Below, in pieces: positions 2,007 to 2,448 of a stretch of 4,484 nucleotides of DNA. Within the stretch, counting starts at the first letter, position 1, and the number at the start of each line of letters is the position of its first letter. Both the position numbers and the translations under genes were made by a program. Source of the stretch: a virus (taxonomy: Duplodnaviria > Heunggongvirae > Uroviricota > Caudoviricetes); IMG/VR virus record IMGVR_UViG_2713896788_000002; one strand, 5' to 3'. Below the pieces are notes generated by a model. It did no database searches. It was not told the origin of the DNA and saw nothing but the letters and a program-made list of their open reading frames with translations.

Positions 2007-2365
2007 TTAATCGTATCAAGCTGGAGCACATCCTCGAATATGCCAGGCAGCAGAGGCATATTGGTCAGCATTGTAAAATTCCACCAGGAGATATGGTTGA
2101 AATCATGGAGATTGCCATGCGCAAGGCTGGCAACTCTCCGGTAACTCCGGATGGTTGGATAAGCTGTAGTGAGCGAATGCCGAACGATAAACAGTATGTT
2201 TGGTGTTGGGGGAAGTCTTACGGCTGGACTGAGTGCGATACCTTCGAAGGGTATTACGATTGTTCGAGAAACAAATGGTGGGCAGTTACTGACAATGGGG
2301 AAGAACCGGCATCGAAAGTAACCCACTGGATGCCGCTACCGGAGCCGCCGCAGGAGGTGAAATGA
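2003..2365 (+). CDS. DUF551-like prophage protein (120 aa)
   Basis: GGGAGA at 1991-1996 before ATG 2003. C-terminal region GWISCSERMPNDKQYVWCWG...KWWAVTDNGEEPASKVTHWMPLPEPPQE matches the W-x-S-E-R-M-P ... THWMPLPEPP signature I associate with DUF551 proteins. Assignment from memory. Confidence 0.65.
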   Translation: MINRIKLEHILEYARQQRHIGQHCKIPPGDMVEIMEIAMRKAGNSPVTPDGWISCSERMPNDKQYVWCWGKSYGWTECDTFEGYYDCSRNKWWAVTDNGEEPASKVTHWMPLPEPPQEVK

Positions 2366-2448
2366 TGAATTGGCCTGAAGCATTCACCGCAGTTGGAGTT
2401 GCAATAGCGGTGGCATTTATTCTGTATTCGCTTTTCCGCTGGGGATAA
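2365..2448 (+). CDS. Small single-helix membrane peptide (27 aa; 28 aa if ATG 2362 is used); not in supplied ORF track
   Basis: In-frame tandem ATGs at 2362 and 2365 overlapping stop TGA 2363-2365 of the upstream gene. SD GGAGG at 2353-2357 is 7 nt before ATG 2365. Translation MNWPEAFTAVGVAIAVAFILYSLFRWG has a 19-residue hydrophobic core flanked by W/E and RWG. Stop TAA 2446-2448, 4 nt before the next gene. Confidence 0.4.
   Translation: MNWPEAFTAVGVAIAVAFILYSLFRWG

Follow-up and report, generated by a model that had tools for sequence, protein, structure and literature searches.

A conserved gene for a predicted 27-residue membrane peptide at the integrase end of the Stx1 prophage of Escherichia coli O157:H7

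In the present study, a small open reading frame (ORF) of 27 codons in an Stx1 prophage was examined and, on the comparative evidence, it is a genuine conserved protein-coding gene. Codon comparisons across its family show the reading frame, length, start, stop and amino acid sequence to be under purifying selection. The window, by which we mean the whole stretch of DNA that was analysed (4,484 nucleotides), carries this ORF between a DUF551 gene and a DUF4222 gene. Our preferred reading, to which we give a probability of about 0.7, is that the ORF encodes a 27-residue single-pass inner-membrane peptide. The gene would belong to the accessory cassettes that lambdoid prophages carry in their 'ea' (early-left, int-proximal) region, and its product would bind a membrane partner or itself.

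The features of the gene and of its two neighbours are collected in Table 1. In the earlier note, a GGAGG Shine-Dalgarno (SD) motif had been described within the last codons of the upstream gene, together with tandem in-frame ATGs overlapping the upstream stop, and both were read at the positions given in the table. The 3' end of the DUF551 gene reads GTG AAA TGA. Of the two candidate starts, the downstream ATG aligns with the family-wide start, and its spacer is that of the commonest junction type (GGAGGTGAATCAATG). Some sister copies have GTG in place of the ATG at 2362, and most family members lack this codon altogether. Hence, the 27-residue product that had been called is to be preferred over one of 28 residues, and the ATG at 2362 is probably not the main start.

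Table 1. Positions of the small ORF, its signals and its neighbouring genes in the window
Feature	Position	Strand	Description
Small ORF	2365..2448	+	27 codons and TAA stop (2446-2448); product MNWPEAFTAVGVAIAVAFILYSLFRWG
DUF551 gene, 120 aa	2003..2365	+	Pfam PF04448, E = 7.8e-19; annotated in RefSeq; supplies the SD and the overlapping stop
DUF551 TGA stop	2363-2365	+	Overlaps both candidate starts; termination-reinitiation geometry
Shine-Dalgarno GGAGG	2353-2357	+	Within the last codons (Q-E-V) of the upstream gene
Alternative in-frame ATG	2362-2364	+	ATGA overlap with the DUF551 stop; 4-nt spacer from GGAGG; product 28 aa
Main candidate ATG	2365-2367	+	TGATG overlap; GGAGG spacer 7 nt
Hydrophobic core (predicted transmembrane), codons 6-24	2380..2436	+	AFTAVGVAIAVAFILYSLF; conserved small residues G11, A13, A15, A17
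DUF4222 gene, 80 aa	2453..2695	+	Pfam PF13973, E = 9.3e-16; begins 4 nt past the small-ORF stop

The translation signals are a property of the family. GGAGG (GGAG in a few copies) stands upstream of nearly all the family copies listed, and this conserved motif is placed 7-10 nt before the start. It recurs in unrelated upstream coding contexts, which end in ..PQEVNQ, ..VEDILR and ..EQEVNR before the stop. The window has four GGAGG motifs on its + strand, and three of them precede gene starts. In most junction classes the start codon (ATG or GTG) overlaps the TGA of the upstream ORF, and a few variant junctions differ. From this anatomy and from the selection described below, we infer that the ORF is translated and that its translation is coupled to that of the gene upstream.

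Two further observations concern the ends of the gene. In one sublineage (junction at about 1480-1520), a 1-nt change lengthens DUF551 by five codons into the peptide gene, with the new end ..PQGVNDELA before the stop. In this sublineage a TGA in the peptide frame lies directly before the ATG-ATG, and the peptide is unchanged. At the other end (2441-2455 of the window), the TGG GGA TAA of the peptide gene includes a GGGGA located 7 nt before the DUF4222 ATG at 2453, and this GGGGA is the sole SD-like motif for that start. Since the W-G codons form this motif, their conservation in the subfamily of the window may partly reflect selection at the nucleotide level.

The 698 bases round the small ORF are 100% identical to Enterobacteria phage YYZ-2008, to Escherichia phage vB_EcoS_phi330 and to the Stx1 prophage carried by many O157:H7 chromosomes (EDL933 among them), and 99.9% identical to VT1-Sakai. 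In the Stx1 prophage (VT1-Sakai, CP-933V, YYZ-2008), the window corresponds to the early-left/int end. In EDL933 the annotated genes run from a TraR/DksA-like gene through an Ea22-like gene, three small hypotheticals, DUF551, DUF4222, a 44-aa gene and excisionase to integrase, and after the integrase comes mlrA (yehV), the attachment site. This gene order places the window at the distal end of the early-left operon in a lambdoid Stx1 prophage, and every gene of the window is on the + strand. Between positions 1600 and 3200 no promoter was predicted on either strand and no terminator on the + strand, and an Rfam search of the entire window (E <= 1) gave no RNA family match.

In the upstream part of the window, a run of N masks 50 bases (224-273). 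Because of this run, the 374-aa 'ORF' at 14..1138 is regarded as an artefact, which fuses the TraR/DksA-like and Ea22-like genes; in EDL933 these have separate, overlapping annotations. Further along, in 1140-1653, a 58-aa ORF (1140..1316) is followed by ORFs 1286..1573 and 1318..1653 in other frames. About 330 bases of this part are without annotation in RefSeq EDL933, and YYZ-2008 has a 95-aa CDS there. This seems to be either one gene broken by a frameshift or a gene call in dispute; a Pfam scan of the ORFs 1140-1316 and 1318-1653 gave no match.

The small ORF had been taken for unannotated, and this holds for all RefSeq loci inspected. There was no CDS for it at any of 14 RefSeq E. coli genome loci, nor in the RefSeq phage records of YYZ-2008, 933W, ArgO145 and Stx2a_WGPS2, nor in the GenBank record of VT1-Sakai. 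The exceptions are a handful of GenBank submitters, who annotate the peptide as a hypothetical protein (e.g. ASL58468.1 and ETI78407.1). A literature search with the peptide sequence found it in none of the searchable papers. The RIBOseq study of Hücker (2017) is the sole such screen of intergenic ORFs in an O157:H7 strain and used a cut-off of at least 30 aa; the small ORF is absent from its supplements because this cut-off excluded a product of 27 aa. Unannotated small phage proteins form a very large class that is already recognised, and a review (PMC11323111) speaks of 'millions of phage small proteins'. The peptide belongs to this broad and largely uncharacterised class, and its own family is absent from PHROGs v4, Pfam and NCBIfam.

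The absence of the reading frame from related prophages, or of a synonymous-site pattern, had been named in the earlier note as evidence that would count against the gene. The opposite was found: frame, start, stop and length are kept, and the substitutions fall mostly on third codon positions. When phage records were searched by tblastn, full-length relatives of 48-70% amino acid identity came up in other lambdoid phages, including 933W, ArgO145 and Stx2a_WGPS2. Five of the six phage records opened hold an intact 27-codon ORF whose ATG overlaps the TGA of the preceding gene.

For the codon analysis, the family was sampled in four ways, of which the first three differ in their bias. These were a peptide pattern anchored at the N-terminus, a codon-degenerate DNA pattern fixing only M1, W3, P4, D/E5, A6, R25, W26 and the stop, a pattern anchored at the C-terminus, and a frame-blind blastn of complete E. 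coli genomes. The pooled samples comprise 305 copies. The length is 27 codons in 302 of them, 25 in two and 31 in one, and all of these length changes are in frame. The copies represent 76 distinct DNAs, which encode 46 peptides; the commonest peptide is encoded by 15 different DNAs and the peptide of the window by six. The Nei-Gojobori pN/pS ratio was 0.35 in the proposed frame, as against 0.97, 1.95, 1.05 and 2.21 in the four frames whose wobble positions differ from its own. When only the 18 codons unconstrained by the pattern were used, it was 0.43, as against 0.64, 1.65, 0.85 and 2.14. The minimum numbers of substitution events at codon positions 1, 2 and 3, which are a conservative count, were 29, 24 and 50.

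The integrity of the ORF was also seen in the separate samples. All 11 copies of the frame-blind sample were intact, including two with in-frame 6-nt deletions and two with GTG starts. In the sample anchored at the C-terminus, the start and WPEAF were kept in 78 of 80 copies, and the stop came right after RWG in all 80. Overall, about 99% of copies keep the start codon. Six codons were fixed by the search pattern, so their apparent invariance is partly circular, and R25 varies (H, S, G) in the frame-blind sample. The sole decayed form seen carries a 1-nt deletion at codon 2-3 and occurs in phage 689R5 and two IMG/VR contigs. The CDS 1199-1309 of vB_EcoS-689R5 is a frameshifted reading of the peptide gene and represents a pseudogene allele.

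These data bear on the proposal that the locus does not code on the sense strand at all, and instead acts as a linker for recombination at a mosaic joint, gives a regulatory RNA or carries an antisense ORF. In many phages the 3' end of DUF551 is held in common and divergence begins exactly at the start of the small ORF, as expected of a mosaic joint. Moreover, the antisense frame that shares the wobble positions is open in 59 of 60 sequences and has an equal pN/pS (0.35-0.38). Because this frame mirrors the selection statistics, they fit either strand when taken alone. The call for the + strand is made on the conserved ATG/GTG, the correctly spaced SD and the fixed stop, which all lie on that strand, on the polarity of the operon and on the lack of a predicted promoter on either strand. 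In the window, the first start codon of the antisense frame is a GTG at 2387, inside the ORF, from which the frame runs into DUF551; no conserved start was seen for it there. The three-base periodicity of the substitutions, the restriction of indels to in-frame ones and the negative Rfam search speak against a linker or an RNA, and the distant homologue described next keeps the peptide and not the DNA. We consider it very improbable that the locus is anything other than a sense-strand coding sequence.

When 1.84 billion representative proteins were searched exhaustively with HMMER, just 14 hits had E <= 0.001, and the 12 retrieved all belonged to the same narrow family. One of these 12, a homologue with the sequence MNITNWPEAFTYIGCAFAIAIIFYSMFRWG, comes from metagenomic contigs of 27-28% GC from three samples. 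Its 30-aa form MNITNWPEAFTY[IV]GCAFAIAIIFYSMFRWG lies at 3001-3093, 2129-2221 and 428-520 of three such contigs. It shares 18 of 26 residues (69%) with the peptide of the window, nine of them through different codons, and the nucleotide differences at codon positions 1, 2 and 3 number 9, 2 and 15. The flanks of the AT-rich contigs are 20-27% identical to the window, which is the random level. The SD of this lineage is GGAG with a 7-nt spacer. We regard this homologue as the strongest single argument that the amino acid sequence is a preserved entity. When the E. coli and AT-rich lineages were compared, no neighbour gene was found in common. The AT-rich homologue lies downstream of PP2C-like and Ser/Thr-kinase-like genes, and proteins of 'huge' uncultured phages share about 33% identity with the kinase.

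Two outlying matches were set aside. A match in Pseudobdellovibrionaceae does not extend beyond the first 13-17 residues, lies in a stretch of high GC crowded with overlapping ORFs, and is probably due to chance. The match in Xanthomonas pisi DSM 18956 (NZ_JPLE01000323.1) is a 431-bp fragment of an E. coli phage of 933W type, with the peptide gene and hok/sok, and is almost certainly a contamination of the Xanthomonas assembly. The peptide gene was also seen in the records ON075799 (vB_EcoM_TH18), NC_025830 (Av-05) and PP818812 (Actinobacillus phage vB_Apl-pPE4), which are labelled as large virulent coliphages or an Actinobacillus phage. In TH18, the only one of the three that was opened, the gene follows lambdoid genes of EaA/Ea22 type. 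This suggests that the three records are chimeric assemblies or carry mislabelled hosts.

The small ORF is widespread and its surroundings vary. Using blastn, with all matches at >=80% coverage, we found it in 1,417 of 5,426 complete E. coli genomes (about 26%), with 2,551 places in all and no more than 7 in any one genome. No counterpart and no hydrophobic small ORF was found in the lambda xis-ea22 interval as read, and there is no copy in K-12 CPS-53 (the yfdQRST DUF551 cluster). At least five kinds of gene lie upstream: plain DUF551, a dATP/dGTP pyrophosphohydrolase fused to DUF551, an Ea22-like protein ending ..NDLKNIEQEVNR, a 114-aa protein ending ..NGLISVEDILR and another ending ..VIAGIGVEVK. 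The downstream elements include DUF4222, hok/sok, a convergent ParE/RelE module, hairpin terminators and others. The commonest of these neighbours after DUF4222 is hok/sok. In 933W-type phages the hok/sok (mokW/hokW/sokW) locus begins where the peptide gene ends (1284-1650 at one locus).

Gene order across these contexts shows the peptide gene to behave as an independently moving cassette. Since the upstream and downstream partners vary, and none is common with the AT-rich lineage, its link to DUF551 in the window is positional and not specific. The coupling to DUF551 that had been proposed is therefore upheld in part: the SD and the stop/start overlap are real and conserved, but the partner is whichever of at least five kinds of gene precedes the cassette.

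The same contexts allow another account of the overlap to be weighed, according to which only the passage of ribosomes from DUF551 to DUF4222 matters and the peptide has no function. The start of the small ORF overlaps the upstream stop, the next ATG follows 4 nt past its own stop, and only a weak SD-like GGGGA, inside the small ORF, serves the DUF4222 start; all of this would suit a translation bridge. However, DUF4222 is the downstream neighbour in only about one third of the family contexts. In about two thirds there is no coupled gene downstream, and a terminator, hok/sok or a convergent toxin-antitoxin module is found instead. Purifying selection at the amino acid level, and the retention of the peptide in the 28%-GC lineage with different neighbours, also argue against a bridge, which we hold to be quite improbable.

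It might also be supposed that there is no separate gene, and that the ORF serves as a C-terminal membrane anchor on DUF551 through programmed -1 frameshifting. In the window, the frame of the small ORF is open for about 24 codons upstream of its ATG, and the SD-like GGAGG just upstream resembles the arrangement at some known frameshift sites. Against this, the junction (G GUG AAA UGA) has no slippery heptamer. The start codon, which a fusion would not need, is kept in about 99% of copies. The sister copies close the upstream frame by a stop directly before the start or no more than 6 codons from it, and the upstream genes are mutually unrelated. Cluster-mates of 121 aa, which were considered as possible DUF551 fusions, proved to be ordinary DUF551 proteins that were linked through partial calls at contig ends. 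With no slippery site, a conserved start, upstream stops in the sisters and plain DUF551 proteins as cluster-mates, such a fusion is the least credible of the alternatives.

Regarding the product, the single clean hydrophobic helix with charged and aromatic caps that had been proposed agrees with the predictions, and the hydrophobic helix is conserved. The best 19-residue Kyte-Doolittle mean is 2.28 (residues 6-24). On the Hessa central-position scale, the unweighted 19-residue sum, which is a rough estimate, is -0.86 kcal/mol. In the AlphaFold2 model, one helix extends from W3 to R25, and the pLDDT is 89. In hydrophobicity the ORF ranks second of the 135 stop-to-stop segments in the window. 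We rejected hydrophobicity as stand-alone evidence, as antisense and random frames in the window give similar values; the conservation evidence is far beyond chance, and hydrophobicity by itself is not.

In addition to the small residues of the core (Table 1), conservation covers W3-P4-(E/D)5-A6 at the N-terminus and Y/F21, S22, C/F24, R25, W26 and G27 at the C-terminus. Positions 8-10, 12, 14, 16 and 19 vary among hydrophobic residues. According to the positive-inside rule, the N-terminus would be outside and the C-terminus inside. Small membrane proteins of up to 50 aa are generally recognised by a short ORF with a start and a ribosome-binding site, by purifying selection and by a bilayer-spanning helix; the first two were found here and the helix is predicted.

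Searches against Pfam, NCBIfam and PHROG (PHROGs v4) gave no significant match to the peptide, the nearest PHROG families being two of unknown function at E = 0.019 and 0.085. A PDB profile search gave no match, and the PADLOC models of known anti-phage defence and exclusion gave none at E <= 10. Particular families were examined one by one. For KdpF, the best score against TIGR02115 was 14.7 bits, below the cut-off of 26.85 and reached by one family member only, and the context is the ea region of a prophage. For the glycine-zipper anchor DUF883_C (PF19029), the scores were 13-14 bits against a gathering threshold of 27. For a holin or antiholin, there was no holin profile match, and the gene lies between ea-region genes and xis/int, not in the lysis cassette.

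The single-pass inner-membrane regulators KdpF, AcrZ, MgtS, PmrR and CydX are known from enterobacteria. The peptide resembles them in having fewer than 50 residues, one helix and interfacial aromatic or charged caps, and in being of a kind that annotation routinely misses. Furthermore, its conserved small-residue faces fit helix-helix packing, as theirs do. It has no sequence relationship with them and, unlike them, it is phage-borne and lies in an early-left operon. The small proteins of the lambda pL/exo-xis region (CIII, Kil, Ea8.5 and Orf60a/61/63/73) share the operon neighbourhood of the peptide gene. To our knowledge, there is no transmembrane peptide among them. Small genes of the pL/exo-xis region have been described as non-essential accessories, with effects on host physiology or on the choice between lysis and lysogeny (PMC3824215, PMC10789677, PMC8614690).

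A membrane-damaging toxin of type I (Hok-like) would also be a small membrane peptide, and such a product would kill or depolarise the host on induction, or act in abortive infection or exclusion. The peptide is small and very hydrophobic with few charges, and small hydrophobic peptides are often toxic when overexpressed. Hok/Gef and other type I toxins are likewise small hydrophobic membrane peptides on prophages. Other phages often place hok/sok or ParE/RelE modules beside the peptide gene, and in 933W-type phages hok/sok is directly downstream. These modules are, however, just some of several downstream neighbours. The Hok_Gef domain, which is about 50 aa long, was not matched in Pfam or NCBIfam, and no other toxin family or PADLOC model was matched. 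We found no Sok or other antisense RNA in the window by Rfam, no own promoter in 1600-3200 and no mok-type leader. In contrast to Hok/Gef, the peptide gene is apparently expressed by coupling within its operon, where a lethal product made from a strong SD would kill the host ahead of phage assembly. In addition, up to 7 copies per genome are tolerated, and the conserved end motifs WPEA and Y-S-x-C-R-W-G point to a defined contact over general membrane disruption. Taken together, the lack of its own promoter and antisense regulator, the strong SD in an early operon, the tolerance of multiple copies and the end motifs make a free-standing toxin unlikely. Binding to a membrane partner looks likelier than toxin action.

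For the membrane peptide that we prefer, the following course of events may be proposed. The gene would be transcribed within the long early-left operon after induction or infection, as deduced from its position, with no promoter or terminator predicted nearby. Ribosomes would start at the ATG at 2365 by means of the GGAGG in the upstream gene, by reinitiation at the overlapping TGA, or by both. The product would span the membrane by one helix (W3-R25), its acidic N-terminus (E5) lying outside, R25 facing the cytoplasm and Trp residues being at both interfaces. The small-residue stripes G11/A15 and A13/A17, together with the C-terminal Y-S-x-C/F-R-W-G motif, would then pack against another transmembrane helix. 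The latter may belong to a host or phage membrane protein or to other copies of the peptide, as in the known small membrane regulators. This mechanism of partner binding is drawn by analogy with those regulators and is not a result. More tentatively, and with some doubt on our part, the widespread peptide may target a conserved inner-membrane machine, which would be a protease, transporter or insertase complex, and so tune induction, lysis-lysogeny or host physiology.

In the present study, we describe a new, well-supported family in a medically relevant prophage, within a class of small phage proteins that is already recognised. The gene lies in the Stx1 prophage of E. coli O157:H7, in a region known to influence lysogenisation and induction. 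It was absent from the annotation of all RefSeq loci inspected, despite its conservation and its presence in more than 1,000 complete E. coli genomes, and annotating it would close an apparent 'intergenic' gap of 87 nt. It is also a clean case in which comparative codon analysis validates ORFs shorter than the usual annotation cut-offs. The peptide offers a defined and easily synthesised 27-residue candidate for work on membrane physiology, prophage induction and Stx phage biology. If the proposal of an inner-membrane machine as its target is true, it would represent a new class of transmembrane 'micro-regulator' encoded by phages, one that every Stx1 prophage carries without annotation.
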